Source: Trypanosoma brucei
Lineage: Eukaryota
Direction of reading: 5' to 3'
DNA length: 64,000 bases
Assembly (NCBI GenBank): GCA_000002445.1
Contig: CP000066.1
Span: forward strand, 1,376,001-1,440,000
Positions 3,131-53,640 of the stretch are shown piece after piece. The stretch's first letter is position 1; every line of letters begins with the position of its first letter. The notes under the pieces were generated by a model. It was not told the origin of the DNA. It ran no database searches and worked only from the letters and a program-made list of their open reading frames with translations. Made by a program: the position numbers and the translations under genes.

Positions 3131-3438
3131 ATGTTGGCAGCAACGGGGTTCCGTCTCCATACCTCAAGCTCATCAAAAATAACGAAACAGTCCAAGGCAG
3201 GGTATACCTCACGCAGCCCGGGAAGGACTTCGTCACGTGTATCACGGATTTAATCTTTTCTTCTTGAATACGCGTCTGGCTTGGAAATACCTCCCGGCAG
3301 CTCAATGCAGGAGTTGCCTTAACTCGGCGGGAGCGGTTACTTCTGGAAAGCGCAACTAAAGATCTTCTTCGACTCGTCCCCTTTAGTTTCTTCATCCTCG
3401 TTCCGTTTGCCGAGCTCCTGCTACCTGTTGCACTGAAG
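3131..3438 (+). pseudogene. LETM1: Disrupted 5' portion of the LETM1 homologue; the reading frame is split across three frames
   Basis: The only upstream ATG (3131, frame 2) sits just after a C7 run and encodes a presequence-like MLAATGFRLHTSSSSKITKQSK. Frame 3 (3183-3290) encodes REGLRHVYHGFNLFFLNTRLAWKYL, which aligns with the LETM1 [10 protein letters not shown] segment. Frame 1 then carries RQLNAGVALTRRERLLLESATKDLLRLVPFSFFILVPFAELLLPVALKMFPDLIPSTFE, which runs into the ORF at 3439. Removing one C from the CCC at 3293-3295 fuses frames 3 and 1 into KYLRQLNAGVALTRRER. Confidence 0.6.
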
Positions 3439-4575
3439 ATGTTTCCGGACCTGATTCCCTCAACATTTGAGAGTGAAAATCAGGGACGCAACAAGGCCTT
3501 TACGACTCTTATGGGAACGGTGCGTGCCCGACGCCGGTTGGCGGAATACCTGTCGTCCACTGCTTTTGTAAGCTTTACGAAAGAACAACAAGAAGTGGTG
3601 CGTTTCTCGGCAATGGGGGAGGCGGTGACCGCGAACCAGATACGTTTAATTGCACCTCATTTTGGTCGGGAAGGGCCGTTTAATGTCTACCAGATCCCCA
3701 ATGGTATTGCAGTAGCTCTGGCAAGGACTGTGGGAGTATACAAAGCATACCATGGTCTTGTTCCTAACAAAATTATGGCTCCTTACATGCGTCGTAAGAT
3801 CTTGCGGCAGTATCATAAAACCCGCGAGGATGACCGTATGCTACGTTTGGAGGGGCTTGACGATTTAACGGATGAGGAGCTGATAAAGGCGAACCTTGTT
3901 CGGGGTATGCGCTGGACAGAGGATGCGGAGACACTACGTATCCAACTTGAATGGTGGATATCTCTAGGACGTGACCCGGATGTCCCTTACAACACCCTTT
4001 TCTGGGTCAAGCCTACCCGATACAGCTTGAAAGAGTCAATGAAACGCTTGCCTGTGGAACAGCGCCGGCAGCTATTGGGCATTCAACATCTTCCCGAGAG
4101 CATTCGTGGAAATCTCGAGACACTCTGCGAAACGGTCGACACAGCTCCATCCATGAGTGAGGGTAAACCTGAGGACGCTGATCAGCTAGTGGAGAAACTT
4201 GCAGAGTTAAATGCTAAAACGAAAATCAGTGATAAGGATATTGCAATTCAGAATATTCAAATATCGCTGGGCGCTTATCTAACGGAACCAAATGTGAAAC
4301 GTATGTTTGAAGACATTCGCAAAAGTAAAACAGTGAACGAATATATAACAGTTACGGATGTCATAGATTTCATTGGAAGTGAAACCCATAATTCTTCCCA
4401 TGTAGTTTCTACTGTGTTTGATGCGTTCGATCAGAGTAGCGGAGTGAAGGCAATTACCGAATCTACACTCATATCTATCGGGGCCCGCTGCAGGGAGGCG
4501 TCAAAGGCACATGTCGACGTATCGTCTCAGTCTTCCCCAGGCAAACAGCCTTCAGAGGTGATTGCAAAAAATTAG
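3439..4575 (+). CDS. LETM1: LETM1-family mitochondrial inner-membrane protein; intact ORF portion covering the LETM1 domain onward
   Basis: MFPDLIPSTFE matches the LETM1 signature LFPNMLPSTFE. GMRWTEDAETLRIQLEWWISL aligns with human [22 protein letters not shown]. The upstream in-frame sequence continues the LETM1 TM/LRLVPF motif. Confidence 0.8.
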   Translation: MFPDLIPSTFESENQGRNKAFTTLMGTVRARRRLAEYLSSTAFVSFTKEQQEVVRFSAMGEAVTANQIRLIAPHFGREGPFNVYQIPNGIAVALARTVGVYKAYHGLVPNKIMAPYMRRKILRQYHKTREDDRMLRLEGLDDLTDEELIKANLVRGMRWTEDAETLRIQLEWWISLGRDPDVPYNTLFWVKPTRYSLKESMKRLPVEQRRQLLGIQHLPESIRGNLETLCETVDTAPSMSEGKPEDADQLVEKLAELNAKTKISDKDIAIQNIQISLGAYLTEPNVKRMFEDIRKSKTVNEYITVTDVIDFIGSETHNSSHVVSTVFDAFDQSSGVKAITESTLISIGARCREASKAHVDVSSQSSPGKQPSEVIAKN

Positions 4576-5716
4576 GTTGTACCGGTGTTTTTTCCCCGTA
4601 TCATCACCAACGTTTACCGACTGTTCGCCATGGAGGAAGCACCATGACTGTAGGTTCATCGAGGGGGGGGGGTAGCAACCCCGAAGAACATATACATTAC
4701 TTCCGCCTTGTGCTCAGGGACATTGAACTACCATTTGCTCCAGTGAACGATGTTTCATGACAAAGACTGGTGCGAAATTGGTATGTATTACGTTTATGTA
4801 TGTGCGGATTAATGTTTTGGCTCCCGTTTTCTCTGTTCAGGGCTGCGGCGTTACTAGCGCGATTAAAGAACGTTGGGTGGGGAGGGGGTATAAGGCATGT
4901 TTACCCTTGTACCCGGGTGTAGCACAAATTTATGCGGCAGCAGGGAAGTATATGAACATAACTGTAGGGGTCCTGCGCGAAGAGCGGGTGACGTGCAATT
5001 ATATCATAGATCTGAAACTTGAATGAAAGCATTCTACTTCGTTTTTAAATTCCCCCTTTCTACAACTTTGAGGAAAGATATACATCAAGTGATCCATGTA
5101 GCCGCACATGAAACCCAGTTCGACTGGCTGTTGTTACCGTGCATTCGATATTGGGAAGAGGACGGCACCCCTTCCCGCTATTTCACCCACGGGTGCGCTG
5201 CGAACGTTAAACGCTTCAACGACGTCGGGTTTCTTTCGACAGTTTGGTGTCGCTGGTAATGGAGTGCAGAGTTTTCCGAAGCAAGCTCAAGAAAGGGCAT
5301 GTTCCCACCCGACTGCTAAATTTCTTTCAGGCAAATATAAGCGGTGGATACACCCGGTGGATTTCGAGTCTTTGAACGAACCCACCCTGTCAATTTGATT
5401 GTGATGAGTTATGTGATATTTTTCTATCATGTTTTGGCGCGTCATAATGACATAGTCACTTCTTTGTGTTTTACCCGAGTCGGAGGCGCCACTTAATACT
5501 ATGTAGGTGAGTTTTTGGTGGGATTCGGCTCAGCAGTTGCACTATTGTGACTCCGTTGATACACAGCGTGTCGAAGGCATGCACCTTATTTCGATAACCA
5601 CATCAATGAAAAGCGTTGTGTTTCATGCGAACTTTGGTGTTTCACACATTCTACTTTACCTCTTTTCATACTGGAGCGGTAGTTGGGATCATGTTTACGA
5701 CGGTATCTTTTTAAAA

Positions 5717-5739
5717 ATATATATATATATATATATATA
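5717..5739. repeat. (AT)n microsatellite
   Basis: About 11 AT dinucleotide units in the intergenic spacer. Confidence 0.9.
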
Positions 5740-6458
5740 CCATCTGTTAACCCAGTTATCTGTTTTTCGTTGTTTGTGGCGTCGGTTTTGTTGTTAAAGG
5801 CACATTTTAGCGCCATCATTACCTATTAGTGCCCCGATTTGTTGTCGTTGTTATCACTGGAAGTTTCTTTGTACTGTAGCCACTCGTTACCGTGAGTGGT
5901 TGAATCGTTTTTCGACTGGTCAACTATTTTGACTTGAAGGACCCGTCGTATCCTCTGGCATGTGGTGTTCGTGGTTGATACAAACGTGTTTGTGCGTGGT
6001 TTGCTGGGGTTTCGACTGCAGCGCTTGTGTTATTTGGCAGTGACCACAAGTACAAACTGTCTGTCGCACAAACCACCTAGCTAGCAAAAAATTTTGCCAC
6101 ATGCACGTCTTGAATAAACGGACGTGGCGACGTTCATGCTAATTTCATCGGTTACGTTGCTTGGGGGAAGTGCTGTAGCATTATTCGCGATAGGGGAGGG
6201 ATTTTTTTTTTTGGAGTGTTTATTTGTTTCTTCCCTTTAATGGTGCAGAGGAATGGGCTTGATACAGCTCGGGGATGTCGCTGTACTTTGATCGGGGGAA
6301 ACGACTAAAGGGTATCTGTGAAGATGTTTTTGTTGGTGGGGAGATGCTTAGAGGTGAGTTATCTACATGGAAGTGGGTCTGCATTGCCGCTGCCTGCATT
6401 CCCTTATTTTGAACGGTAGTCGCTCAACGATGCTTCTTCCCACATATTTTGAGAGCGA

Positions 6459-7085
6459 ATGAGAGAAACTGCTATTATGAACAACAGATTAGTACTACCT
6501 GCTTCAGCTTCCACAGATGCAGAGAACGGCAGTGTACACGTTCGTGGCGGCACCCGGTGCTGCGGGCCCTGTTGTCACTCAGACCAAAAGCGAGGACGGT
6601 CAGTGTGGACGAAGCCCACGTTAGAAGCAGACGACACTGCTGACAGCGACGCGTGTGAAGATGTCGTGAAGCGCAGTGAGCGGCTCTTGGAACTCTTGCG
6701 CGTGCGCAAGATTCAGTGTGATTCAGCTGTTGATACTTCTAGCATGATTTATGATGTGGAAGCAGAGATGTCACCATTGGCTGCTTCTGGCACGCGGATG
6801 TGTAGGGCCGTTTTTTCCCAATCCTCTGCTCTTGTGCCTTTGTCCTCCATCGCTGGGGATAAGGATCTCGTGGAGTTTGATGTATCTGGGGAAGAGAAAA
6901 CTAACCCGGTGCCGGTGAGCTCTCGTTCGCTACTGAAAGTTGCTATTACTTGTACGGACGCAGAGACACAAACACTTCCCGCTCCGGTGGGCTATCGGGT
7001 GGAAAACCCAATAATGACAAAACCTGATTGGTTCGTTCTTCGGTTATGTGAATTGGACGCTTTACTTCACATATTTTTTTCCTGA
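6459..7085 (+). CDS. Hypothetical protein (208 aa); no recognisable domain
   Basis: Open frame on the + strand only, lying between two supported genes in the directional cluster. No motif recognised. A weak call. Confidence 0.3.
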   Translation: MRETAIMNNRLVLPASASTDAENGSVHVRGGTRCCGPCCHSDQKRGRSVWTKPTLEADDTADSDACEDVVKRSERLLELLRVRKIQCDSAVDTSSMIYDVEAEMSPLAASGTRMCRAVFSQSSALVPLSSIAGDKDLVEFDVSGEEKTNPVPVSSRSLLKVAITCTDAETQTLPAPVGYRVENPIMTKPDWFVLRLCELDALLHIFFS

Positions 7086-7242
7086 GATTGTTTATTCGTT
7101 TATTTGATTCTTTTTTTTTTCCCGCACCACGTCTATTTTTATACTTTTTGCAGATGGGACTGCATGTTTTCCCCTCCTGACTGCTCGGCTCAGTGTTGCC
7201 CATCTTCCTCCGCCGTGGTTGCCGGTTTCCCAGTAGTTGCGT

Positions 7243-7290
7243 TCGTGAGGTGATCCTATTTCTCTGACCCCTCCGGCTGCTTTATAGAAT
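7243..7290 (+). promoter_or_regulatory. Polypyrimidine tract upstream of OvoA; candidate trans-splice acceptor region
   Basis: Pyrimidine-rich gatcctatttctctgacccctccggctgctttatag ending in AG, 25-70 nt upstream of the ATG at 7312. A longer T-rich tract lies at 7091-7150. Confidence 0.4.
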
Positions 7291-7311
7291 AAGAAGCTAA
7301 GTAATCAAAAA

Positions 7312-9561
7312 ATGACCTCACTCGTCCTAAATCACTATTCGCAGGAGGAAGTCAGCCGACTTTTCAATCTTTCGTCTCCACGAGACCTATTTCACCAGCG
7401 CACGCCGGCGCTGGCCGACGGAGACGTGAAACAGAAGGTGGAGGAGATACGCTCTTACGTGCATAGCACTATGGAACTGTATGAGAGGGTTTTTGAATGC
7501 CTCTCGTCGGAGGAAGCGTTTTTCGTTCAACCGATCCACAAGCTTCGCCACCCCTTAATTTTTTACTACGGCCACACTGCCTGCTTCTACATAAATAAGT
7601 TGTGCGCCGCTGGACTCTCCATGCGAATTCGCCCACACCTTGAGGAGGCGTTTGCAGTTGGTGTGGATGAGATGAGCTGGGATGATCTTAACGAAGAGCA
7701 CTATAACTGGCCAACAGTGGAGGAAGTTGTAGAGTACCGCCGTGCTGTCCGTAAGCACGTGGATGGCATGATGACAAGTGGCAAATTTGAACTGACCCTT
7801 CCCTTGACATTTGCTGGAAGCACAGAGAACGCTGACAGTTCATTTTGGTGGTTAATGTTGATGTGTGCTGAGCACGAGCGCATCCACGTCGAAACCGCCT
7901 CCGTTCACGTGCGAGAACTTCCCATGCGTTATGTGAGGCCGTCTATGGATCAGTTCTGGAAGCCGTGTGGGGAGGCAGGTTGCGAAGCCCCGGCAAACGA
8001 GCTGGTGGATGTAGCCGGGGGACGGGTAGCCGTCGGACGTGCGCCTAACTCTGAGCTATACGGTTGGGATTGCGACTACTCTGACGGAAATTATGTGCTT
8101 AATGTTGCACCGTTCAAGGCGAGTAAGTACTTAGTGTCTAACGCGGAGTTCTTTACCTTTGTTGTTGCAGGTGGTTACGCTACGCAACGCTACTGGGATG
8201 AGGAAGGGTGGAACTGGGTCCAGTGGAGGAAACCTGAGTGTCCCTGGTTCTGGGTTCGCGATGAGAACCGACCCAAGGGTTATGCGCTTCGACTTCAAAC
8301 GACGCTTATTGACTTGCCGTGGAGCTGGCCATGTGAGATTAACAATCTTGAGGCTCGGGCGTTTTGTAACTTTAAAAGTGAGCAAACTGGGAAGAAAATT
8401 CGTATGCCTACAGAAGCTGAATGGCTGATTCTTTGGGACCGGTACGTCGGCAAAGATCAAATGTTGTGGGATGTAGCGCCGGGGAATGTTAACATGGAAC
8501 ACTTCCAAAGTAGTTGCCCTGTCGATAAGTTTGCTCACGGTCCATTTTTCGATATAGTTGGAAACGTGTGGCAGCACTGTGAAACACCAGTATACCCGTA
8601 TCCTGGTTACCAGGTGCATCCATTCTACGATGATTTTTCTATGCCTACCTTTGATGGTCGCCATGCGTGTATGAAAGGCGGGGCATGGGTTAGTACGGGG
8701 AACGAGGCTACACGCGATGCTCGCTTCGCCTTTCGCCGCCATTTCTTCCAATACATCGGACTTCGATACGTGGAAGGTGAACCGGTGCAAGAGGGGTTTC
8801 TCAACTTGAATTCGTTGGGGCTTGATCCCATGGTGGATGCCATTACGGATGCCAACTACCGTCCTTCGTTTAATGACATCCCTAATGGTTTCGTACAGAT
8901 AGCAGAATTTGTTATGAACCAGTTCAGGTGTTGTGCTAGGACAGGGCCGAAGCGTGCCCTTGATTTTGCGTGTGGGGCTGGACGGATAGCATTTGAGCTG
9001 ACGTCAATGTTTGATCAAGTGGTTGGGTCGGATTTTTCTGCCCGATTGCTCATTCCCGCCTACGCTATCAGTGAGCGCGGAAGCTACACATATAGTATTG
9101 TGAACTCTTCTACGTCGAGACGTGTAGAACAAACCTTCAAGTCGCTGGGGTACCCGTGGGATGCAACCCGAGGGCGCGCTGTTTTTTTTCAAGCAGATCC
9201 TACGAACCTACACTCCCACATGAAAGATTTCTCGTTGATCTTGTGCTGGAACACGCTGGATAGGAGCTACAACCCCACCGCTGTTCCGTCGCATATGGTT
9301 GACAGGCTTGTGGTGGGTGGTTTGATTGTCTTCGGGCTTGATGGAGTGACTGATGAAGTCAACGAAGGAAAGAGGGAGCAGGGGGGTGAGGAAACACCCA
9401 AGCAGGTCGTCTTCTCAGAAAACGAGATCTATCATCTGTTGGGCGGAGAAAACGTGGTGGACCGCGTCGGAGACCCAACACAACTGACGGTTGCGTTTCC
9501 TGCGTCAGACTCTACAGCAACTTTCAGAAAAGTTCGGCTGTCCGTCTACCGAAAGAAATAA
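7312..9561 (+). CDS. OvoA: 5-histidylcysteine sulfoxide synthase OvoA (ovothiol biosynthesis): a DinB-like plus FGE-sulfatase domain fused to a C-terminal SAM methyltransferase
   Basis: Iron-binding H-x3-H-x-E motif (EHERIHVE). EgtB/OvoA-type FGE-sulfatase-like region (FKASKYLVSNAEFFTFVVAGGYATQRYWDEEGWNW, GPFFDIVGNVWQHCETP). C-terminal methyltransferase motif I (LDFACGAGRIAFEL). This three-part architecture is the one described for OvoA of Erwinia and Trypanosoma. Confidence 0.85.
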   Translation: MTSLVLNHYSQEEVSRLFNLSSPRDLFHQRTPALADGDVKQKVEEIRSYVHSTMELYERVFECLSSEEAFFVQPIHKLRHPLIFYYGHTACFYINKLCAAGLSMRIRPHLEEAFAVGVDEMSWDDLNEEHYNWPTVEEVVEYRRAVRKHVDGMMTSGKFELTLPLTFAGSTENADSSFWWLMLMCAEHERIHVETASVHVRELPMRYVRPSMDQFWKPCGEAGCEAPANELVDVAGGRVAVGRAPNSELYGWDCDYSDGNYVLNVAPFKASKYLVSNAEFFTFVVAGGYATQRYWDEEGWNWVQWRKPECPWFWVRDENRPKGYALRLQTTLIDLPWSWPCEINNLEARAFCNFKSEQTGKKIRMPTEAEWLILWDRYVGKDQMLWDVAPGNVNMEHFQSSCPVDKFAHGPFFDIVGNVWQHCETPVYPYPGYQVHPFYDDFSMPTFDGRHACMKGGAWVSTGNEATRDARFAFRRHFFQYIGLRYVEGEPVQEGFLNLNSLGLDPMVDAITDANYRPSFNDIPNGFVQIAEFVMNQFRCCARTGPKRALDFACGAGRIAFELTSMFDQVVGSDFSARLLIPAYAISERGSYTYSIVNSSTSRRVEQTFKSLGYPWDATRGRAVFFQADPTNLHSHMKDFSLILCWNTLDRSYNPTAVPSHMVDRLVVGGLIVFGLDGVTDEVNEGKREQGGEETPKQVVFSENEIYHLLGGENVVDRVGDPTQLTVAFPASDSTATFRKVRLSVYRKK

Positions 9562-11002
9562 GTGATGGACAAAGCTCTACCTCCTCTCCAGTTTGTATGA
9601 AGTCACAGTCGCGCCTCGAGTCTTCTTCCAATGAGGCTTTAACATGATGGTAGGGCGTTTAGTTTTTCGGTTATTTTCCATAATTTTCTTTCTTATTTGG
9701 TTTTTCGGCTTAACAAAAGGCCGGTTTCCGGCCCTCCCCACCGCGGGCGCTTTGCTACGGGCCACCGTCTATGCACTGGCCCGCCTCATAGCATTTGAAT
9801 ACGTACATATACTTGTATTCGAATAGTTTGTGCAGCTCTAATGAAAAAAGTATGTTTTCAGGGTTTATGAGATATACCATTTGTGTTTAATTTTTTGTAC
9901 CCTCGTATTCACATTGTTTACTCATTTATCAAAAGAGGAAGTGGTAGCGTGGAGGCAGGTAAACGCCGCCGGCTACGAGCGAACGGGTGTCGGGAAACGA
10001 CGATGTGTTAGCGATTTCGTTTGGGATACCATAATTGAGGAGAGAGATCGTTGGCATTCGGTGATGGAAGAGGGATGCATTCTGCTAGTTTTGTCAGTGA
10101 AGTAAAATGGACTGTGCCCACTTTTTTTTTCTTCGTATTGCTAAGCGGCGAGAAATGTGCATGATATCCCCGCCTCAGTGCCCTGACTACCCCTCCCACT
10201 CATGGCGGTTGTTGAGTTGTTTTGATGGTCCCTATGGGTCGTTTCTTTGTGTTCTCAGGTGCTTCCGCTTGAGCGTGTGTCCGTTATTCAGAACATATTG
10301 AGGGCCAACTTATGTAAGGCACTTGTGTAACTATGGGATTGGAGGTGTGGCTTTGTTGTGGTAGGGTCGAAGTTCAGCGTATTGTGGCAGATCAACCCCA
10401 TTTCCTGTTTGCTCGCGTCAGGAGGACACTGTTTCTTTTTTTTTTTTAAAGGCACAAGGGAATACGCCTGGGTTAGTGCGCTGCATTTGACCTTATATCC
10501 GGTTCCTATTGATGAGGCTGGCTTCGTTTTGGCGGCGGTATATTCAACCAAGCGCGATCCTTGAATCGACTATGCCCTCCACTACGCTATGTCGGCTTAC
10601 TGACTTTAGGATCCACCTCGTTGACCTCTGTCCTTTTACTTGGGGTGTTTAAACTGGGTTCGGGCTCTGTGGGTGCTCGTCAGCGACCGTCGTTTACATC
10701 GGACATCTTTAATTATTTTTATTCCATAATCCGTTTGTGTTTTTGTACCCCTCACTCCAATATACGAGGGTGTAAGGGCCTGAGAGTTATGTGCATGTGG
10801 GAGGAACTCTTCGTATTAATGCAGTTTCTTGTTTTTTGTTTGCATACGCCAGCCGAGTACCACGCACCTTCTCGTTTCCCATATGTGTGTGTATCTCCTT
10901 CCGTAGGTCTGCGCGCTGTTTGTCTTCTTTTACGGTCATTTGTCATTATTTCGTTAATTTCTTTTGCCCCTTGTAGATACGCGGTGCGGCCAGTAAGTTG
11001 GG

Positions 11003-12502
11003 ATGCGGCGTGCATTGTACCGTGGGGTGACCGAGTCAGGAGCTGAAATAAGAAATTTTGCTGTTCACGCTGGATGCATGCGACGCTGGTGCAGCGCTGC
11101 GAGTGGTTCTTCGCGTGGTGATAGGCCCACTGATTATGATGTACCTCCACCGCGCCCCGCCTTTTATGTGCCCCCGGAGGAACGAGCATCAGACGATGCC
11201 TCGCTACAGTTTCTTCGGAAAGACAGTGGAGTGCGCTCAGGTCTGATGAAGGGATGTGGGGATGCGACTGGTGAGGTTAAACTAGAGCCTGGCCAACTCT
11301 TCGCCCCCGAGCCTCCCGTCCGCCCGGCGGAATCACCCAGTTACATCAATGAAAAAGCAGCGCGATTGTCATCTACAAGTGTCCGCGCAGGGGCCTCCTT
11401 GTTAACGGGGGACATCGGAGCAGAGGTCAGTCGTCTAGCGGTGGTGAAAAATTCCACATCTACGCGGAACCGAAGCGAGAAAACAGATGCATCTCCACCC
11501 CTCACGTATGGGGGGAGTAAAGGATCGATATTTGAGTCGAGGGACGTAGCCGATGGAGTGCCGGAAGGGAAAAAGATCAGACAACATGAAGGAACTGTTG
11601 GCAGAGGTGAGGAAGGCGGAGAAACCACTGGAGGAAATCCCACTGGCGATGAATTGCCGCTCTTACAACAAATGCAGGTTGATCTTCGCCGTCTGGAATA
11701 CTACCAGGGGACCCCCCAATATCCAGAGATGCTGAAGGAGTTCCGCGCAAAATACTTATCTGACGGCGGTAGCGAGGGTGAAGGGGACGGACGTCTGGAG
11801 GACCTTCGGTCTTACACCCAGGAAGAGCTGGCGCGCGGACTGGAGTCACAGCCAATTGATTATCTTCGGGCTAGCAGTAAGTTGAAGGTGGAGCTTACCA
11901 GCGGCCCCAGAGCGTACGACCCGGTACTTGTCATGCAGCAGATGGGTGTGATGCGGTTTCAAGGGTATGCTTTCCCTCCCACGACGGAATTAGGTAGGCT
12001 ATGCGACAGTGATGGAAAACTGCCGGACTCGAGCGAAGGTGCCCATAGATTTGCCAAGTATGTAGCTCAGACGGCTCCAACAGCCATCAAAGATCAATTG
12101 AAAGGCAATGAGGACAGGCACATTCTCTATCGAACAATGGGCCTAGACGTCGTACAACGCCGACAAGTGAAGGCTATGTTGAGTGACTTTGACCACGGTG
12201 ATCGCCATACGTCATACCATGTGATGATGTCGTATCCCTACGCTGACTGGTTACATGTGTTCTACATGGTTTTGGTGGGGGTGGCGATATATGAGATGCA
12301 GGTTCGATTTTGTGCGTATGACTTTTATGATGAGTATTTGGGATTGGACCTGCGCCAAGTTCCCAAATTGAAGAAGCCCTTCCTTGTCACTGTTACTGTT
12401 GTGGTGATGGTAGTCGCACTGTTTCACCCACTGCTTCTAGTTAGCATTGCAACCACGCGTCTTTATCGCATCGCGATGAAGCGCCCTGTTGGACCTCCAT
12501 AA
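11003..12502 (+). CDS. Hypothetical protein (499 aa) with an Arg-rich N-terminus and two C-terminal hydrophobic helices
   Basis: N-terminus MRRALYRGV...RNFAVHAGCMRRW resembles a mitochondrial presequence. C-terminal hydrophobic segments WLHVFYMVLVGVAIY and PFLVTVTVVVMVVALFHPLLLVSIATT. No catalytic motif recognised. Confidence 0.5.
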   Translation: MRRALYRGVTESGAEIRNFAVHAGCMRRWCSAASGSSRGDRPTDYDVPPPRPAFYVPPEERASDDASLQFLRKDSGVRSGLMKGCGDATGEVKLEPGQLFAPEPPVRPAESPSYINEKAARLSSTSVRAGASLLTGDIGAEVSRLAVVKNSTSTRNRSEKTDASPPLTYGGSKGSIFESRDVADGVPEGKKIRQHEGTVGRGEEGGETTGGNPTGDELPLLQQMQVDLRRLEYYQGTPQYPEMLKEFRAKYLSDGGSEGEGDGRLEDLRSYTQEELARGLESQPIDYLRASSKLKVELTSGPRAYDPVLVMQQMGVMRFQGYAFPPTTELGRLCDSDGKLPDSSEGAHRFAKYVAQTAPTAIKDQLKGNEDRHILYRTMGLDVVQRRQVKAMLSDFDHGDRHTSYHVMMSYPYADWLHVFYMVLVGVAIYEMQVRFCAYDFYDEYLGLDLRQVPKLKKPFLVTVTVVVMVVALFHPLLLVSIATTRLYRIAMKRPVGPP

Positions 12503-13071: not shown

Positions 13072-16000
13072 ATGTCTATGCACCGTGACTTACTTCGAAT
13101 AAGGCGGCAGACGTCGAACCTTGTCTCGTCACCCTCGCCTCCTTCCTCACGTGCCAGCCCTCGTGCAAGGGTGAGTTCGGCTAGAGGGGAACAACGACAA
13201 GGTGCTAGTGAAGCCGTGCATGTAGCAGTTCGTGTGCGGCCTTTGTCTGTCAATGAGGCGGGACAAGATGTCATCGTTTCGATGGATCCGTCAGCGAAGA
13301 AGATATTCGTGAGGAACCGAGGCGAGGAGCAACAAGAGTTTCCTTTTGAGTTGCCCGTATGGTCTTGCGGTGGAAATGCGCTAAACGGCTCGCCGCCGGT
13401 AAGTCAGGCAGCACTGTACAAAATGGTTGGGCAACCCCTTTTGGACCACGCATTTGAGGGCTTTAACAGCACACTTATGGTATACGGTAGCACAGGCAGC
13501 GGAAAAACTTACACAATGATGGGTGACATGGATGGCGGCTTTCTGGGTGAGGACGAGGATGTGCTCAACGATGGTGAGGAGGGCATTGTCCCACGCCTAT
13601 GCCGTGAGATGTTTCAGAAGATCAGAGATCGCTCGGTCAGCTTGTCTGACGGGGGAACGCTGACGTGGGATGTGCATGCCTCCTATGTGGAGGTTTATTG
13701 TGAGAAGATTAGCGATTTACTGAATAACGGTGCCCCTGTCACTATTCGTGAGGTGATCACGGATAACGAAGCGCACTTTGCGCTCAATGGTGCGCAGCGG
13801 GTTAACGTCCGTAATTCAGCGGAAATACTGCATCTCCTAAAAATTGGTAACAGACACAGGAAAACAGCCTCTACGGCCATGAATGAGCGCAGTAGTCGTA
13901 GTCATGCTATATTTGTTGTGGAGCTCACCGAGATGCTTGTAGTGAGGGGACCCGATGGTGAGTGTGTCGGTGCCCCAGGCAAGTTCCTTACCGTTCGCCT
14001 CGTTGATTTGGCGGGTAGTGAACGCGTTGGGGAAGCGGGCATGTCGGGACAGCTATTCAAGGAGGGTGTTGATATTAACTGCAGCCTCTTCACCCTGGGT
14101 ATGGTAATTGAGGCTCTTTCGGATCCTAGTCGACGCCATATGAGGCCACCATACCGTGACAGTACGTTGACGAAGATTCTAAAGGACGCATTTGGTGGAA
14201 ACAGCAAAACCACGATGATTTGTACCATTGCCCCCACGGAGGCCCAACGTGTGCACACGGTTCAAACACTTCAGTACGGGCTTAAGGCGCGACGAATTGT
14301 GAACAAGCCATGTGCGAAGAGAGGACCGTCAGCTAAAGAGCTTCGTAAGGCCAGTGAGGAGATGCTTAGTTTACGCCAGAAGCGCAGGGAAAGGCAACCA
14401 CAAGGCACTGGCTTGGAGGAATCGTATGCTGATCTAAGGCGTGCTGGCGACGGAGGCTTACATAATGGGGGTGCTTTACGTCATTCTGAGAGCTCGTCGG
14501 AAGGCAAGGAGACTTCTCTTGGCGGCTCCAATTTCGCTACAGATGAGGAGAGGGACCGTTACAGGAGGAAGATGGAAGAGCTGGAAGAAGAAATTGAGCG
14601 TGCGAGGGCGAGATACAGAGAGCAGGGGCGGGAGCTGCAAAACATAAGGAGAGAGAGTGCGGCTGAGGCTGAGGTGCGTTTAAGGGCGTTAGAAGCCCAA
14701 TTCAATGAGAAGGAAAATCATTTGAAGCGGAAAGGTCACGAAATTCAAAGGAAGCACCGTGATGCGGAGAGCCGATTGAAAGAGTTTAAAAATTTTTCGG
14801 AGGAGCGCATTTCTGACCTCCTTCGTGCACAGGGGGAGCTGAAAGATAAGTTACACGAGAAGGAACTTGCAGTCGGGCAGCGTGAGCGGGAGCTGCAGGA
14901 GGCCCAGAGTCGTGCCGAGGAGGAGGTTTCCCGTTTGCATCAGCGCATGATGCAGCAGGAACGAAAATGGCTTGAGCGCCATAAGGCTTTGGAAGCTGAA
15001 ATTTGCGCACAGGAAGACAAAATGAGGGACCGATTGCGTGATGCTATGGAGAGAATGCGTAATGTGGAAGAAGTTGCAGCACGTCGCGAGAGTGAGCTTC
15101 ACCGCAAGTGGTTAGATGCCCAGCAAGCGACCCGAGAGCTTCACCACAAGTTAGCTGAGAGCGAGGCAGAAAAGGCGCGACAAATATCTCAGGATCGCCG
15201 GGAAACAACCAAACGCGAGTCTGAACTTGCCCATAAATTGGAAGAAACTGAGCGCGGCCGAAAGGCCCTCGAACGTGAGGCGGTATCGCTAAAGACTGAA
15301 TTGGATGTGTTGAAGGAAGACTACGAGATGCTCGCTAAAAACAGCAGGGAGGGTTGTGATGCGGAGGCGCGGCTTCTCCCCCTTGAGGAGGAACTAAAGA
15401 GGCGAGAGGAGCGGCTGCAGCAACGCGAGGAACAGGCCCAGGCATCACTCGATGAAGTTCTAAAGAAGCAAGAGGAACTGGACCGCTTACACCTCGCAGT
15501 CATTGCCAAAGCAGATGCTATTGAGAAGGATGCGGTTGCCGCACTTCGGGAAAGGGAGAGTCGCCTTCAGAAGCGTGAAGATGAGCTTAAGAGCTTGGAG
15601 CATGAGTTGGAGGCACGCTCCGCGGTTTTGGATGTGGAGGCCAAGTATAAATCAATGGAGTACGATACGAAGGAGAGTGGGGCAGAGGCTTTAGCTTCCC
15701 GCGAACGCCGCGCCACAGAACTGCTTCAAGATGAACTTCAGGAAGCATTGCAACGTGTTCATCTCGACATGAAACAGAGGGAAGAGAAGTTTGATCGAAT
15801 GGAAGATGATATCAAGCGATGTCGTGAGCAGTTGGAGAATCTCTACAACGAGCGGGATGAGATGCTTAGGCGTGCATCCACATCCTCCGCTGGACGCAGC
15901 TGCGTGTTTGACTCGCCGCTTCCCGTTCCTCCACGGGGTTGCCGAAGATGCAGGTCGGGTACATCGTGGCCGTCCAACTGTAGCACGATGGGGACCGGGG

Positions 16001-17856
16001 AGGAAAATGATGCGTCTCTCAGTGGGCGGCAGTTCTCTCCTAACCAAAGCAGCGCGTCGCAGCAAGAACCGCGCTGCTCAGAGAACGGGGTTGAGGGGGG
16101 GAGGTCGTCTGAACTGCGTCCGATAAGTGCTCTTGCGGGGGAGTCGGTTTGCTTATGGCTCAAGAATATGCTGATCACTATGGAGGAAAGGAGCCGCGGC
16201 TTACTTGAGGATTTGTGCTATCATGAATACAGTGTCCTCGAGCGGATGACGTCCATCGGCTCTCTTTTTTCGTTTGGCGAAAATGCTCCCAACACGAGGA
16301 GCCCTGAGGTGGCCGCCAGGGTGGTTGACCGTACTTCGGTGTCTGCATGTAGTGACCATTTGCGCGGTGGTTTTCGACTTGGATCAATATGTGGTGTCGT
16401 GCCCCATGATGCTCCTTGCGTGCCTAGCCTCATGCATACTGAAGCGGACTGCGGTTTAAGAGATGCAGCATCGGAACATGAACAACTTGCCCAGCGTATA
16501 GTCGCGTTTGAACGGCTGCAGCATCAACGTGAGGTCGAGTTTCAGCAGAAGGATGAGCAAATCAGGGAATACCTAGTTGAAGTGGAGGCGATGGATCGTG
16601 AAAGGATGGCGATGTATCGCTTAAAGGAGGAGGAACACGAGGCTGCGGCTGCACAGTTGCAGATGGCAAAACGTGAGTTTGACCACCGTGTTAATTGCAT
16701 GCAGCAAACCCTTTTTTGCCGCGGCGCGCAGCAACACGCTGAGTCCATAGTCTTGCAGGAGGCCGCTGAACGTGAGAACATTTTTCGGCTATTCAACATT
16801 CAACTTCACAAGATTTTCGCCCATGAGAGAAACATGGCGCACCATACGAACTGTGTGGACTTGTTGCGCCAGAGAGAGGAGGTGATCACGCTTGAGGAGG
16901 CACAACTCCAGAAACGTATAAGTCAGCTAAAGGACGAGGAGGATGAGTGGAAAAGACGTCGTTCCACCGAGGAGACGCAGATACTCACGTACCTATTGGA
17001 GCTACAAAACGAAGATATGCTGCGCAAGCAAGCCATTGGGGAGAAGGGAAGCAGAGAGGACACCGCGAAATACTGCGAAGACGCCGAACTCGGGGTTGCG
17101 GGTTTGTGTAATGTGATGCATCGAGTAAGGGATCACACGCAGAAGTGTGAACTTGCGGTACAAAAGATGGAGAGTGAACTGGAACAGCAGGCAGATGCGG
17201 AGAAGGTCTTGGAGGAACGTGAAGCTGCTGTTGAACGGCGCCGTCGTGAACTTTCCACCAGCATGGAGTCTCGGGAGCGTTCCCTTTTGGACAGGGAAAT
17301 GGAACTGGAGGAGTTGACTCGTCGGCTTAAAGGTGACATACAAAAACGTGAACTTGCGATACAAAAGATGGAGAGTGAACTGGAACAGCAGGCAGATGCG
17401 GAGAAGGTCTTGGAGGAACGTGAAGCTGCTGTTGAACGGCGCCGTCGTGAACTTTCCACCAGCATGGAGTCTCGGGAGCGTTCCCTCTTGGAACAGGAAG
17501 TGGACCTACGGAAACTGTCCACTAAAGCAGGGGATAATTGTCGTAAACGTCCGGGTTCTCGTGTGGCACATAATCAGGAAGGTTCCTACTACGTTGACAT
17601 CAAGAAACTTCTGGAGGTCTGTGGATTTCAACTGCCGGGTGGAAAAGTTGAATTCCCGGACGGCGCTGACACACCGATTGAACTGACCGATAACCTTATC
17701 GACGTTATCGAATCACTACGACGCCAGCTAAAGGTATGGATTCAAAAGTATCGTGTGCTGAAGTCAGATGAGAAACTGGAGTGTGAACGCTGTTTGTGGC
17801 AGAATAACCGTGGTGCCACTGTGTGCCGATGCTGCGGCAATGCTCAACTTGTGTAA
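13072..17856 (+). CDS. Kinesin-like protein (1594 aa): N-terminal motor domain, very long coiled-coil stalk, C-terminal RanBP2-type zinc finger
   Basis: The motor begins VAVRVRPLS. P-loop GSTGSGKTYTM, switch I NERSSRSHAIF and switch II LVDLAGSERV are all present. Charged heptad-like sequence runs from about residue 430 to 1500. C-terminus CERCLWQNNRGATVCRCCG fits C-x2-C-x3-N-x6-C-x2-C (RanBP2 ZnF). Confidence 0.9.
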   Translation: MSMHRDLLRIRRQTSNLVSSPSPPSSRASPRARVSSARGEQRQGASEAVHVAVRVRPLSVNEAGQDVIVSMDPSAKKIFVRNRGEEQQEFPFELPVWSCGGNALNGSPPVSQAALYKMVGQPLLDHAFEGFNSTLMVYGSTGSGKTYTMMGDMDGGFLGEDEDVLNDGEEGIVPRLCREMFQKIRDRSVSLSDGGTLTWDVHASYVEVYCEKISDLLNNGAPVTIREVITDNEAHFALNGAQRVNVRNSAEILHLLKIGNRHRKTASTAMNERSSRSHAIFVVELTEMLVVRGPDGECVGAPGKFLTVRLVDLAGSERVGEAGMSGQLFKEGVDINCSLFTLGMVIEALSDPSRRHMRPPYRDSTLTKILKDAFGGNSKTTMICTIAPTEAQRVHTVQTLQYGLKARRIVNKPCAKRGPSAKELRKASEEMLSLRQKRRERQPQGTGLEESYADLRRAGDGGLHNGGALRHSESSSEGKETSLGGSNFATDEERDRYRRKMEELEEEIERARARYREQGRELQNIRRESAAEAEVRLRALEAQFNEKENHLKRKGHEIQRKHRDAESRLKEFKNFSEERISDLLRAQGELKDKLHEKELAVGQRERELQEAQSRAEEEVSRLHQRMMQQERKWLERHKALEAEICAQEDKMRDRLRDAMERMRNVEEVAARRESELHRKWLDAQQATRELHHKLAESEAEKARQISQDRRETTKRESELAHKLEETERGRKALEREAVSLKTELDVLKEDYEMLAKNSREGCDAEARLLPLEEELKRREERLQQREEQAQASLDEVLKKQEELDRLHLAVIAKADAIEKDAVAALRERESRLQKREDELKSLEHELEARSAVLDVEAKYKSMEYDTKESGAEALASRERRATELLQDELQEALQRVHLDMKQREEKFDRMEDDIKRCREQLENLYNERDEMLRRASTSSAGRSCVFDSPLPVPPRGCRRCRSGTSWPSNCSTMGTGEENDASLSGRQFSPNQSSASQQEPRCSENGVEGGRSSELRPISALAGESVCLWLKNMLITMEERSRGLLEDLCYHEYSVLERMTSIGSLFSFGENAPNTRSPEVAARVVDRTSVSACSDHLRGGFRLGSICGVVPHDAPCVPSLMHTEADCGLRDAASEHEQLAQRIVAFERLQHQREVEFQQKDEQIREYLVEVEAMDRERMAMYRLKEEEHEAAAAQLQMAKREFDHRVNCMQQTLFCRGAQQHAESIVLQEAAERENIFRLFNIQLHKIFAHERNMAHHTNCVDLLRQREEVITLEEAQLQKRISQLKDEEDEWKRRRSTEETQILTYLLELQNEDMLRKQAIGEKGSREDTAKYCEDAELGVAGLCNVMHRVRDHTQKCELAVQKMESELEQQADAEKVLEEREAAVERRRRELSTSMESRERSLLDREMELEELTRRLKGDIQKRELAIQKMESELEQQADAEKVLEEREAAVERRRRELSTSMESRERSLLEQEVDLRKLSTKAGDNCRKRPGSRVAHNQEGSYYVDIKKLLEVCGFQLPGGKVEFPDGADTPIELTDNLIDVIESLRRQLKVWIQKYRVLKSDEKLECERCLWQNNRGATVCRCCGNAQLV
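17147..17488 (+). repeat. Near-identical tandem duplication inside the kinesin stalk: two copies of about 141 nt with a 201-nt period
   Basis: 17147-17286 and 17348-17487 are almost base-for-base identical, with one visible difference (gcggta versus gcgata). They encode CELAVQKMESELEQQADAEKVLEEREAAVERRRRELSTSMESRERSLL twice, 67 aa apart. Confidence 0.9.
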
Positions 17857-49965: not shown

Positions 49966-52900
49966 GCATCTCTGACGCTCATTTCTCCCTTTTGAATTGT
50001 GGAGCGAGGGAGATGGTTGCGGCGATGTGCAAACGGTGAATGCACAAGAGAGAAAAAAGCGAAAAAATAATAATAATTCTAAAGTGTCTGTAGACATGAC
50101 TAAGGAGAGAAAACCTCTCCCTCTACATTTCACCTTATTGTATTCCATTTTATTTCTTTACTTAACAAAAAAAGAAAATAACTGTAAGTGACTTAACTAT
50201 ATTCCCTTCCCTTTAAACCTGTTTTCATCCCCTTTCATTCCCTTTCCTTATTTTTCTCGTTATTTTTAAAAAAAAAGCTGTGTGTGCTGCTGGGTGTGTT
50301 TTTATACATTAATTTATTTTCATGTTGCAATATTTCCTCCCTCTCATCTCTTTTCTGCATTCCACGGATTCACGTGCGTTGGGGTAATGAAAGAAGAAAA
50401 TCTCAATTTCTGATGGTGGAGTCAAATCCTCCACTTTTTTATGTTTTATGGTATGTTTTATGGTATGTTTTATTGTTTTTTTTAATTGTTTTATTATTTA
50501 TTATTTTTTTTCCCCCATTTCAAAATTCGTTCGACCCACATTTGTGTTGATGCTTCGTTTCATTGAACCCTTTTCTCCCTACTCTCACTCTCACTCTCAC
50601 ACGCACACGCACACGCACATGCACGATTATACGAAAATATGTGAAAGTTATATATTTATTTATGAATGTGCTTATTTTTTGGTTAATGCAACTTCTCAAC
50701 CCCCCTTTTCCCCGTTATTATTTCACATGTACCGTTTTTTAAGCGATGCGACGCACTTACACTCTCTGCATGATGAAACGGAGTTTCGCGACACCCCATT
50801 TTAAAATTTTTATTGTTTATCTTTTTTCTTTTTTTTGCTCCTATAAATGTAGTTTTTACACAATATCACATAATATAATTTAATATGACTTCACATTATT
50901 TAATACAATCTCATTATTTTTCTTTTTTTTTTTGTGTGTGTGTGTATGTGCGGTTAAACGACCCTCTATGAGGCAGTTGCTTGTTGTCAATATCGTTATT
51001 TGTATTTTAAAACGAAAACAATAAGGGAACTGCAAAGGAACAGACAAAAAGGAAAAAAATAAAATAAACAACAAGAGGACACTCACAGAATAAACCGAAT
51101 AAAATCCAGCATTCAATAATAAAACAATGACAACATCAACAGAAAACAGAACACAGAAGGAAACACGAACAGAAAATAGGAGGAAAACAGAACCCGTTGA
51201 CAAAAAATAAAAACAGAAGAAAAAAAACACAGAGAGAAAAAGAATTAGTCAATATACCTCAGTATAAAATGAAATATTAACGGAAAGAATATGTTATGAT
51301 TTTGCCCGTTTGTTCTTTCTTCGATGCCGTTGCAATAATGGTAAAAATGATAATAATAATAATTAAAAAAAACGTTTTCCCCTCCGATATTTTTATTTTA
51401 TATCCTTCCTCTTTTTTTTTTTTGCTTTGCATTTTGGTTTGCACATAACTTTGTGCAGTTCACGTTCACACGATGGCGCTGCTGCTCACAGGCACTCAAC
51501 GCATCCACTTCAAGAAGTGAGAAGATAAAAAAAGAAAATAAAAATGAAGCTATCAAATCTGCTCCACCCATACAATCCACGACTATTCTTACATACTTAC
51601 ATTTTTTTCTTTTAAATAAATAAATAAATATATATATATATATTCTTTTCTTGTTGTTGTTTTTGTTCACATAAATATCAAATAACAAATAATAAATACA
51701 TTCGTTTTACTATTTATCCAATCACTTCCGATTTTCACAAATGACTTTGTTTCGCTTCGATACCCTTCAAAACACCGCTGCGTGGGACGGATTCAAAAGA
51801 ATAACTTGCAGACGACTAGCGGCAATGGGAGGAGGAAAAAAAAAAGACAAAAAGAACTGACGCACACGAGTTAGAAGTTGATAACTGTTGTGAGAAGGAA
51901 GAAGAAGAAGCAAAGGGGCGGAAAAAAAAAAGGAGACAAACAGAGCAACAACAACAACAACAGCTAATTTTCTCATTATTATTATTATTGCTATTATCAC
52001 TATTGTTATTTTTGTTTTGCCGGTCACTAGAAGAATATACACCCGTATTGAAATAAATAAAATAAGTAAATTTTAATTTGTTTTGTAACTATTATTTCCC
52101 ATATTTTAAGCGACCAAATATTTACATCAAGGCAGAACACTTTGGATGATATGATCTCCAAAAGAAGGAAGATAATGCAATTGTATATGTATATGCATAT
52201 GTATGAGTGTGTGGGTTTTATAAAAGAAAGCACGTGACACAATTAATGGCAGAAAAGAGGGAGAAAATGCATAAAACGAAAGTCGCTCCAATGAACAATA
52301 ATGAAATATAGGACACAAAATATTAAAGATGGGGGATCAAATCGAAGGGCAGAGGGGCGGGGAGGGAGGGCGGAGGAAAGAAAAAAAAAAGATAATAGCC
52401 TGATAAAAAGAAAATACGAATATATATATATATATATAACTATTTATATTTTATATGTTTTTTTTTCTTTTTATAACGTTATCGCGTGATGACATGAATT
52501 ATTGGGAGGGTGTGGGTTTTTATCGTTTCCTTATTTTCTTTTAATTTCAGAAAAAAGAAGTTGTTTTTGTTTTTTTATTTTTTAATTTTACTTTTTAAAT
52601 TATCAGGTATGTTCTCATTACCTCTCCTGCGATGTGACTACACGCCTTTATGTTTCACTGAATCCAAATTCTTTCGTGTCTTTACTTCCATTTTTTTTTC
52701 TCTTATCCCCCCATATATTTACTTTAATTTTTATTATTTATCGGAACATGACTTAAGCGATTACCTGACTTGGATATCAGTCAACTAAGCACGCACACAC
52801 ACACACACACACATAATCAAGTGAATTAGAAAGAAGAACAAAAAAAATCAAAGAAAGCAAATTTAAGGATACGATAAGGGCAGATCAAAGTGAAGAAGAA

Positions 52901-53043
52901 AAAAAACAACAATAACAACAACAATAATAATAATAACAGCAAAAAAATAAAAATAAAAAGGAAAGAGTATAAATTATTCACTCAAATTGCCCACTGTTTT
53001 TTTTTAATTTTGCTTACTTGTTACTACTTGAACGCAATCACAT
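49966..53043. other. 3 kb AT-rich low-complexity spacer with alternating strand composition
   Basis: About 50200-50900 is T/pyrimidine-rich on the + strand, 51000-52400 is A/purine-rich (long runs such as aaaacagaacacagaaggaaacacgaacagaaaatagg), and 52400-53000 is T-rich again. It contains (CA)n at 52791-52814, (TA)n at 51633-51646 and 52424-52440, and (cactct)n/(cacg)n at 50581-50625. No ORF longer than 120 aa. Confidence 0.7.
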
Positions 53044-53640
53044 ATGCCCTCCGCTGAAACACTACTGAAGGATTTGTTCGGTTCTCATACCGTTGAGTTG
53101 CTTCGGCAGGATGGCAAAATGGTACCCGCAACAACTGCTCTTGAAGGTAAGAAATATTTGCTTGTATATTTCTCCGCCTCATGGTGCCCTCCGTGTCGTG
53201 TTTTCACACCACAACTCGCCACATTTCATGAGCTTTTCAGCGCAAAACACAATTTTGATGTGATATTTGTTTCACGAGACAAGGATGAGTCCTCCATGTC
53301 TGCTTATTTCTACAATCCAAAGTACAGCAGTTTATCCGTAAGTGGTGGCGAATGTTCTCATGGGGACTGGCTTGCATTGCCCTTCACACAAGCGCAGACT
53401 GTAGGAAAGGAAATAATGAGCCGATATGGTTTAAACACGATTCCTAATATTCTTTTGTTTGACCTCAGCACGGAGGAGTTGGTGACAAGTGAGGCACGTC
53501 AATTGATTGGATCCAACTGCCGGTCGGCTGAAGGTTTCCCGTGGCGTGGCGCCTCGGCTCCGGTAATTTCGTTTCAAGGATTGGCAACTGTATTTGTTGT
53601 GTTTTTGATGTTGTATCAATTTTGGCAGTCGTGGAGTTGA
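53044..53640 (+). CDS. Tryparedoxin-like thiol-disulfide oxidoreductase with a C-terminal hydrophobic membrane anchor
   Basis: Tryparedoxin signature YFSASWCPPCRVFTPQL (WCPPCR active site) in a thioredoxin-fold-sized protein. C-terminal hydrophobic GLATVFVVFLMLYQFW immediately before the stop, i.e. tail-anchor-like. Confidence 0.8.
   Translation: MPSAETLLKDLFGSHTVELLRQDGKMVPATTALEGKKYLLVYFSASWCPPCRVFTPQLATFHELFSAKHNFDVIFVSRDKDESSMSAYFYNPKYSSLSVSGGECSHGDWLALPFTQAQTVGKEIMSRYGLNTIPNILLFDLSTEELVTSEARQLIGSNCRSAEGFPWRGASAPVISFQGLATVFVVFLMLYQFWQSWS

Follow-up and report, generated by a model that had tools for sequence, protein, structure and literature searches.

OvoA, the bifunctional enzyme that catalyses the first and last steps in the biosynthesis of the antioxidant ovothiol A, is said to have been defined in 2011, partly on the Trypanosoma cruzi enzyme that Braunshausen and Seebeck reportedly characterised in that year. 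Bacterial OvoA combines a sulfoxide synthase with a methyltransferase, and OvoB is a pyridoxal phosphate (PLP)-dependent lyase. As cited in two sources, recombinant OvoA of T. cruzi and of Erwinia tasmaniensis are the founding characterised members (bioRxiv 10.1101/2023.12.08.570742; PMC4768315). In Leishmania mexicana, knockout of OvoA resulted in the loss of ovothiols A and B and in shifted redox ratios of glutathione and trypanothione (bioRxiv 10.1101/2023.12.08.570742), and the presence of OvoA across trypanosomatids has already been stated in the literature. Here, a stretch of 64,000 nucleotides from Trypanosoma brucei (the window; contig CP000066.1, positions 1,376,001 to 1,440,000 of the forward strand) was analysed, in which a coding sequence (CDS) at 7312..9561 on the + strand very probably encodes the T. 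brucei orthologue of this enzyme. All features described below lie on the + strand except for a single antisense frame.

The open reading frame (ORF) starts with ATG and specifies 749 amino acids (aa) and a stop codon. It was assigned, through the ORF, a match to XP_844085.1, NCBIfam models and PDB entry 8KHQ, as 5-histidylcysteine sulfoxide synthase fused to 5-thiohistidine N-pi-methyltransferase. An earlier inspection of the letters without database searches, hereafter the sequence-only reading, had described a single 749-aa fusion at this place, and both its coordinates and its length were exact. An in-frame TAG at 7285-7287 precedes the ATG at 7312, which is the first possible start, and there is therefore no longer N-terminus. 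The product is identical to T. brucei brucei TREU927 XP_844085.1 (AAZ10526.1; UniProt Q582P2), which bears out the kinetoplastid origin assumed by the sequence-only reading, and the 749-codon frame runs without interruption. Against a second T. brucei strain, represented by Logan contigs L001 and L002, the CDS shows three synonymous differences and no non-synonymous ones. The gene is thus an intact copy of a well-known two-domain enzyme, one already known. Inside it, an antisense ORF at 8131..8790 (219 aa, TTG start) had no Pfam match and was treated as a chance ORF.

The records for this protein carry diverse names. GenBank lists it as 'hypothetical protein, conserved' in TREU927 and DAL972, UniProt as 'Generic methyltransferase', and a near-identical T. 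equiperdum protein of the same 90%-identity cluster as '5-histidylcysteine sulfoxide synthase, putative'. A homologue from Diplonema papillatum (P0101) is labelled 'Hercynine oxygenase' despite an OvoA-class F-A-F and an ovoA_Cterm score of 217 bits. The T. brucei annotation, now a 'hypothetical protein', could be upgraded with confidence.

Two halves make up the protein. The sulfoxide synthase half occupies residues 31-487 (7402..8772; TIGR04344, Pfam and Foldseek) and contains a DinB_2 domain at residues 55-195 (7474-7896; Pfam 40.8 bits, cut-off 24.8) followed by an FGE-sulfatase-like (C-type lectin) domain at residues 228-487 (7993-8772; Pfam 63 bits, cut-off 23.3). The S-adenosylmethionine (SAM)-dependent methyltransferase half covers residues 504-748 (8821..9555; TIGR04345, OvsM/OvoM matches and Foldseek). 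The NCBIfam model ovoA_Nterm (TIGR04344) aligned over positions 2-444 of its 444 at 577 bits (cut-off 400, E = 2.6e-173), and ovoA_Cterm (TIGR04345) over positions 3-242 of 242 at 239.7 bits (cut-off 170, E = 3.2e-71). The model for EgtB types I/II (TIGR03440) reached 125.4 bits and stayed below its cut-off of 360, as did the SenA/OvsA model NF041186 at 116 bits against 420. Among solved structures, the best relative in the PDB search was the full-length Hydrogenimonas thermophila enzyme OvoA-Th2 (8KHQ; E = 1.2e-152), which aligned with both domains over residues 46-674. EgtB-IV came second with the N-terminal half only (residues 45-487, E = 1.5e-77), OvsM (E = 8e-14) and OvoM (E = 1e-11) matched the C-terminal half only, and classical EgtB was weak (EgtB-I 4X8B, E = 2e-13; EgtB-II, about 2e-8). 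In a Foldseek search with an AlphaFold2 model built from an alignment of 14 sequences, 8KHQ was again at the top (E = 1.7e-52), with TM-scores, normalised to target length, of 0.80-0.82 for the N-terminal half against EgtB-IV structures and 0.82-0.85 for the C-terminal half against OvsM/OvoM. The FGE-sulfatase/EgtB-like core named by the sequence-only reading was borne out by the Pfam and ovoA_Nterm scores, and its C-terminal SAM methyltransferase by the end-to-end ovoA_Cterm alignment and the matches to solved OvoM and OvsM.

The active site was compared with that of OvoA-Th2, in which three histidines, H71, H162 and H166, coordinate the metal; R62 and Y68 contact the cysteine substrate, F409 contacts the histidine substrate, and Y406 hydrogen-bonds to a water at the presumed O2 site (PMC10696552). 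Residue equivalences were mapped through the HMMER alignment with 8KHQ, and conservation was read from an alignment of 14 sequences from Trypanosoma, Leishmania, Phytomonas, Bodo, Diplonema and bacteria. R79 (7546-7548) corresponds to R62 and Y85 (7564-7566) to Y68, while H88 (7573..7575), the equivalent of H71, is the predicted first metal ligand. The signature H-x3-H-x-E is present as EHERIHVE at residues 187-194 (7870..7893), with H188 and H192 equivalent to H162 and H166. Farther along, Y439-D-D-F442 (8626..8637) aligns so that Y439 equals the catalytic tyrosine Y406 and F442 equals F409. R79, Y85, H88, H188, H192, Y439 and F442 are invariant in all 14 sequences, as is the H-x3-H-x-E motif, whose loss on careful alignment had been named beforehand as grounds for abandoning the identification. 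E194 is conserved as well, but it is absent from the ligands listed for 8KHQ (PMC10696552). Hence only part of the iron site proposed from the letters stood: the motif and the two histidines held, whereas the glutamate as a ligand did not, 8KHQ being a three-histidine site. H-x3-H-x-E is a valid signature, but the phrase 'His2-Glu iron site' is outdated, and the ligands are predicted to correspond to H88, H188 and H192. In the methyltransferase half, the SAM-binding motif I was located by alignment as LDFACGAGRIAFEL at residues 550-563 (8959..9000), in agreement with the sequence-only reading; D551, G557 and D629 are invariant, and D574 is found in 13 of the 14 sequences.

A pathway can be proposed on this basis, in which the activity of the T. 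brucei enzyme and its regiochemistry would follow from conservation and orthology. The N-terminal half, with its DinB and FGE-sulfatase-like domains, would hold one non-haem Fe(II) on the facial triad H88, H188 and H192, bind L-histidine and L-cysteine, and use O2 to couple the sulfur of cysteine to imidazole C5, giving 5-histidylcysteine sulfoxide; Y439 and Y85 may bias the reaction to sulfoxide synthesis and away from dioxygenation of cysteine. The cysteine carbon skeleton would then be stripped off by a separate PLP-dependent C-S lyase (known as OvoB in bacteria) to leave 5-thiohistidine, and the C-terminal SAM methyltransferase half would methylate its pi-nitrogen, yielding ovothiol A. The ovothiol disulfide would be re-reduced non-enzymatically by trypanothione and glutathione. 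Ovothiol is said to have been found by Ariyanayagam and Fairlamb (2001) in the insect stages of trypanosomatids, with little or none in bloodstream T. brucei. Metabolomic measurements detected ovothiol A in T. brucei, with a drop during the RBP6-driven differentiation of procyclic cells (PMC7307792).

Several points weigh against this assignment. All generic Pfam models for SAM methyltransferases stayed under their gathering scores on the C-terminal half: Methyltransf_25, 23, 12 and 31 gave 23.6, 21.1, 20.1 and 16.3 bits on residues 545-684 (E from 9e-5 to 8e-3), with cut-offs of 27-30. The sequence-only reading had suggested verifying this domain with a SAM methyltransferase hidden Markov model, and the outcome was divided, the generic models being marginal while the OvoA-specific C-terminal model and the fold comparison were positive. 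The structure model is of moderate confidence (predicted local distance difference test, pLDDT, 75.8; predicted TM-score, pTM, 0.73) and is poor over residues 440-481, a region that takes in the Y439-F442 and F472-F474 sites; it is adequate for fold assignment and too uncertain over that region for active-site geometry. OvoA of L. mexicana is dispensable in the laboratory, both for promastigotes and for macrophage infection, which leaves its physiological importance uncertain, and the C-S lyase OvoB 'remains elusive within the kinetoplastidae' (bioRxiv 10.1101/2023.12.08.570742). In a domain search, no OvoB-like PLP lyase was found among the large ORFs of the 64-kb window. Furthermore, no experiment on the T. 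brucei OvoA protein was found in the searchable literature, where the only paper naming both '5-histidylcysteine sulfoxide synthase' and 'brucei' concerns Leishmania.

Two of these points, the generic methyltransferase models under threshold and the dispensability of OvoA in L. mexicana, are what a decaying or partly inactive relic would offer, for example one with a dead methyltransferase half, retained through phylogenetic inertia alone. The reportedly low ovothiol content of T. brucei, with none detectable in bloodstream forms, would point the same way. Such a relic is improbable, as the frame of 749 codons is unbroken, all mapped catalytic and SAM-binding residues are kept, and TIGR04345 matches over its full length above the cut-off. 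The protein is 74% identical to its T. congolense counterpart and 68% identical, without gaps over 737 residues, to T. cruzi OvoA, with about 60% identity to Leishmania (60% for L. major). The two T. brucei strains differ by synonymous changes only, and ovothiol A is present in procyclic-derived cells of T. brucei (PMC7307792).

More searching evidence was required for the relation to EgtB-IV, an ergothioneine sulfoxide synthase that uses hercynine as substrate and places the C-S bond at C2. In favour of the T. brucei protein being such an enzyme, solved EgtB-IV aligns over nearly the entire synthase half, and OvoA enzymes make ergothioneine sulfoxide from hercynine as an in vitro side activity (PMC10696552). 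As a control, the EgtB-IV sequence (8VIH) was rebuilt from its PDB-search alignment and scanned against NCBIfam, where it scored 564 bits on ovoA_Nterm against the cut-off of 400. The model therefore cannot separate the ovothiol class from the type IV ergothioneine class, and for the same reason the comparison put forward by the sequence-only reading is insufficient alone, even though it came out as expected, with best matches to OvoA rather than EgtB and the methyltransferase domain aligned. The ovoA_Nterm score was consequently dropped as a discriminator, and the composite motif was used instead. TIGR04344 is an 'equivalog' model, and its automated use would name stand-alone EgtB-IV proteins OvoA.

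The composite motif reads RxYH--DxHxHYF(Y/F)AFx in the OvoA class, RxYH--DxHxHYxNWFx in EgtB-IV and xNEH--HRH... in SenA/OvsA; a small alanine marks the histidine acceptors, and a bulky aromatic residue takes its place in hercynine acceptors (PMC11030361). It was read from a 125-sequence mafft alignment of the window protein, 8KHQ, two EgtB-IV chains (8VIH and 8VIG) and 121 database homologues. The T. brucei protein has R79-Y85-H88-D119-H188-H192-Y439-F442-F472-A473-F474, or RYHDHHYFFAF, and falls into the OvoA class, with F472-A473-F474 (8725..8733) as the histidine-acceptor signature of that class in the published motif; D119 is probably the 'D' of that motif. Both controls behaved as expected, OvoA-Th2 ending in Y-A-F and the two EgtB-IV chains in N-W-F. 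The full motif with (Y/F)AF was found in 119 of the 125 sequences and two more were gapped at N-terminal positions; the remaining readings were (Y/F)SF in two sequences and NWF in the two EgtB-IV controls. The SenA/OvsA motif does not apply, since T. brucei reads R.YH..D where that class has NEH..HR. In addition to showing F-A-F and not N-W-F, the T. brucei protein carries a fused OvoA-type N-pi-methyltransferase, for which the EgtB-IV chains of 463 and 468 residues are too short; its gene is the positional orthologue of that of T. cruzi, a species with a characterised OvoA; and ovothiol is lost upon knockout of the Leishmania orthologue. An EgtB-IV-like enzyme is hence highly unlikely, and the composite motif together with the fused methyltransferase settles the predicted class as OvoA.

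That the cell would use the enzyme mainly to dioxygenate cysteine to cysteine sulfinic acid, and only secondarily to make ovothiol, is scarcely credible: bacterial OvoA does act as a cysteine dioxygenase with cysteine alone, with histidine analogues or in tyrosine mutants (PMC10696552; PMC8943887), but both sulfoxide-favouring tyrosines, Y85 and Y439, are present, wild-type OvoA-Th2 with both natural substrates yields about 10% sulfinic acid (PMC10696552), and a fused methyltransferase makes sense for the ovothiol route only.

With OvoA as the preferred assignment, two consequences can be considered. The enzyme has been proposed as an anti-infective target and is reported absent from bony vertebrates (PMC4768315), with which the earlier claim of its absence from mammals agrees. 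The case for such a target is weakened because the L. mexicana knockout is viable. In addition, the C-S lyase for the middle step is still missing for kinetoplastids, and the 64-kb window does not supply one.

The neighbourhood of the gene was compared with those of T. cruzi and L. major. In T. brucei, Pfam identified an IPP transferase (IPPT) at 60-1436, a peptidase A22B (signal-peptide peptidase) at 1662-2720 and LETM1 as an open ORF of 378 aa at 3439-4575, followed by a 208-aa ORF without Pfam domain at 6459-7085, OvoA, a 499-aa ORF without Pfam domain at 11003-12502, and a kinesin at 13072-17856 (Pfam). The order in T. cruzi is IPP transferase, signal-peptide peptidase, LETM1, ABC2-type transporter, a 206-aa ORF, OvoA, a 517-aa ORF and kinesin; L. 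major has the same core gene order around OvoA, and the kinesin was seen in T. brucei and T. cruzi. Owing to this conserved flanking order, T. brucei OvoA is a positional orthologue. In T. cruzi and L. major the ABC2-type transporter gene, two genes upstream of OvoA, separates LETM1 from the small ORF (6389-8470 of contig L003 and 5456-7624 of contig L004), whereas tblastn found no trace of an ABC2-membrane (ABCG-type) transporter anywhere in the T. brucei window, where the corresponding interval is 4576-6458. In the T. brucei lineage the gene seems to be missing from a block that is syntenic in other respects.

The 208-aa ORF ends 226 nucleotides (nt) upstream of the OvoA start, and an ORF occupies the corresponding place both in T. 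cruzi (206 aa, with 29% identity at E = 7e-13) and in L. major (175 aa); because of this conserved position it probably represents a genuine gene specific to kinetoplastids rather than a chance ORF. The 499-aa ORF has 499 aa also in T. equiperdum and T. b. gambiense, whereas the TREU927 annotation (XP_844086.1) gives 474 aa, for which a later start codon was presumably chosen; its UniProt name is 'Transmembrane protein', and it shares 52% identity with the 517-aa protein at the syntenic place in T. cruzi. The 5' end of LETM1 is broken in the window over 3131-4575, as judged against the 481-aa T. equiperdum protein SCU68733.1: frame 2 encodes aa 1-25 (3131-3205), frame 3 aa 28-54 (3210-3290) and frame 1 aa 55-481 (3292-4572, 100% identical). 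These frame changes imply at least two single-base indels, and only the 378-aa ORF is open. In T. b. gambiense the record of this protein carries the label 'LOW QUALITY PROTEIN'. Either a sequencing error in the reference or a genuine disruption at the N-terminus of a mitochondrial protein may lie behind the break.

Farther downstream, a tryparedoxin-family gene of 198 aa was located at 53044..53640 (Pfam Thioredoxin_8, 67 bits). Its thioredoxin fold and WCPPC motif uphold the tryparedoxin-like gene first seen at 53044, and it is recorded as XP_844099.1 'tryparedoxin, putative' and as 'tryparedoxin 2' in T. equiperdum. The hydrophobic stretch VISFQGLATVFVVFLMLYQFWQSW at its C-terminus hints at a membrane tryparedoxin of the tail-anchored kind. 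The gene lies 43.5 kb downstream of OvoA with more than a dozen unrelated genes between them, and therefore nothing suggests a functional link between the two; the sequence-only reading had rightly held that their linkage does not imply co-function. Other large ORFs of the window encode a kinesin, a zinc-ADH-like protein, a cNMP-binding protein, a Ku subunit, ribosomal protein L4, ankyrin-repeat proteins, a PSP1-domain protein, an XPB helicase and an RNase T-like exonuclease, and the domain search found among them no thiol-pathway partner of OvoA other than the distant tryparedoxin gene. Every window ORF of at least 180 aa with a Pfam domain is on the + strand, and tRNA and Rfam scans of the whole window gave no matches, a layout that fits one directional gene cluster. 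Between the PSP1-domain and tryparedoxin genes, about 3 kb (49966-53043) is AT-rich, with a GC content of 0.33-0.36 against about 0.49 elsewhere, and holds only short low-complexity repeats; this segment could be a long untranslated region (UTR), or a regulatory or boundary region in the gene cluster.

A Logan look-up returned four contigs with the exact OvoA protein, all of 2-5 kb. L001 and L002 (runs ERR7929163 and ERR7929164; 3.6 and 3.5 kb) start at window positions 7232 and 7252, which is 60-80 nt before the ATG, and extend about 1.2-1.3 kb past the OvoA stop (L002 to about 10735; combined span 7232-10856). Their size resembles that of a transcript, as for an mRNA with a long 3' UTR. The spliced-leader sequence was not found at the 5' ends of L001 and L002. 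In the window, a polypyrimidine tract begins near 7090 and has AG dinucleotides downstream of it, one of them at 7232-7233.

Compared with the known systems, the T. brucei enzyme is closest to those of T. cruzi and Leishmania, which share its length class (752-757 against 749 aa), its three-domain order, its composite motif RYHDHHYFFAF and its chromosomal neighbourhood. Bacterial OvoA, as in E. tasmaniensis and OvoA-Th2, has the same build of a DinB/FGE synthase and a SAM methyltransferase, and shares the three-histidine triad, both tyrosines, the equivalents of R62 and F409, and (Y/F)AF, at about 42-47% identity; F472 stands in place of the bacterial tyrosine, and the class motif permits both. 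EgtB-IV (8VIH and 8VIG) is the closest relative outside OvoA, with the same N-terminal fold and identical R, Y, H, D, H, H and Y positions. It differs in having N-W-F instead of (Y/F)-A-F, in accepting hercynine and sulfurising C2, and in the lack of a fused methyltransferase. The stand-alone N-pi-methyltransferases OvoM and OvsM of bacterial clusters (PDB 9BXL and 9BXH) align with residues 500-695 at about 20-23% identity, whereas in T. brucei this domain is fused to the synthase.

Kinetoplastid OvoA also differs from bacterial OvoA in three segments. It has an N-terminal extension of about 26 residues, and its last 75 or so residues are more divergent, so that bacterial matches cover about 87% of the query. 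Furthermore, an insertion of about 10 residues, AGSTENADSS, lies at about residues 168-177 (7813..7842; columns 172-181 of the 14-sequence alignment), just N-terminal of the metal-binding helix; in that alignment an insertion at this position is found in kinetoplastids and in one metagenome homologue (P0049) and not in Diplonema or bacterial OvoA. There is a slim chance that the insertion, the extension and the divergent C-terminus adapt OvoA to a different partner or regulation, for instance by letting a non-homologous C-S lyase dock, by placing the enzyme under stage-specific control in the tsetse forms, or by directing it to an organelle. In that case the ovothiol pathway of kinetoplastids would be more than a copy of the bacterial one.

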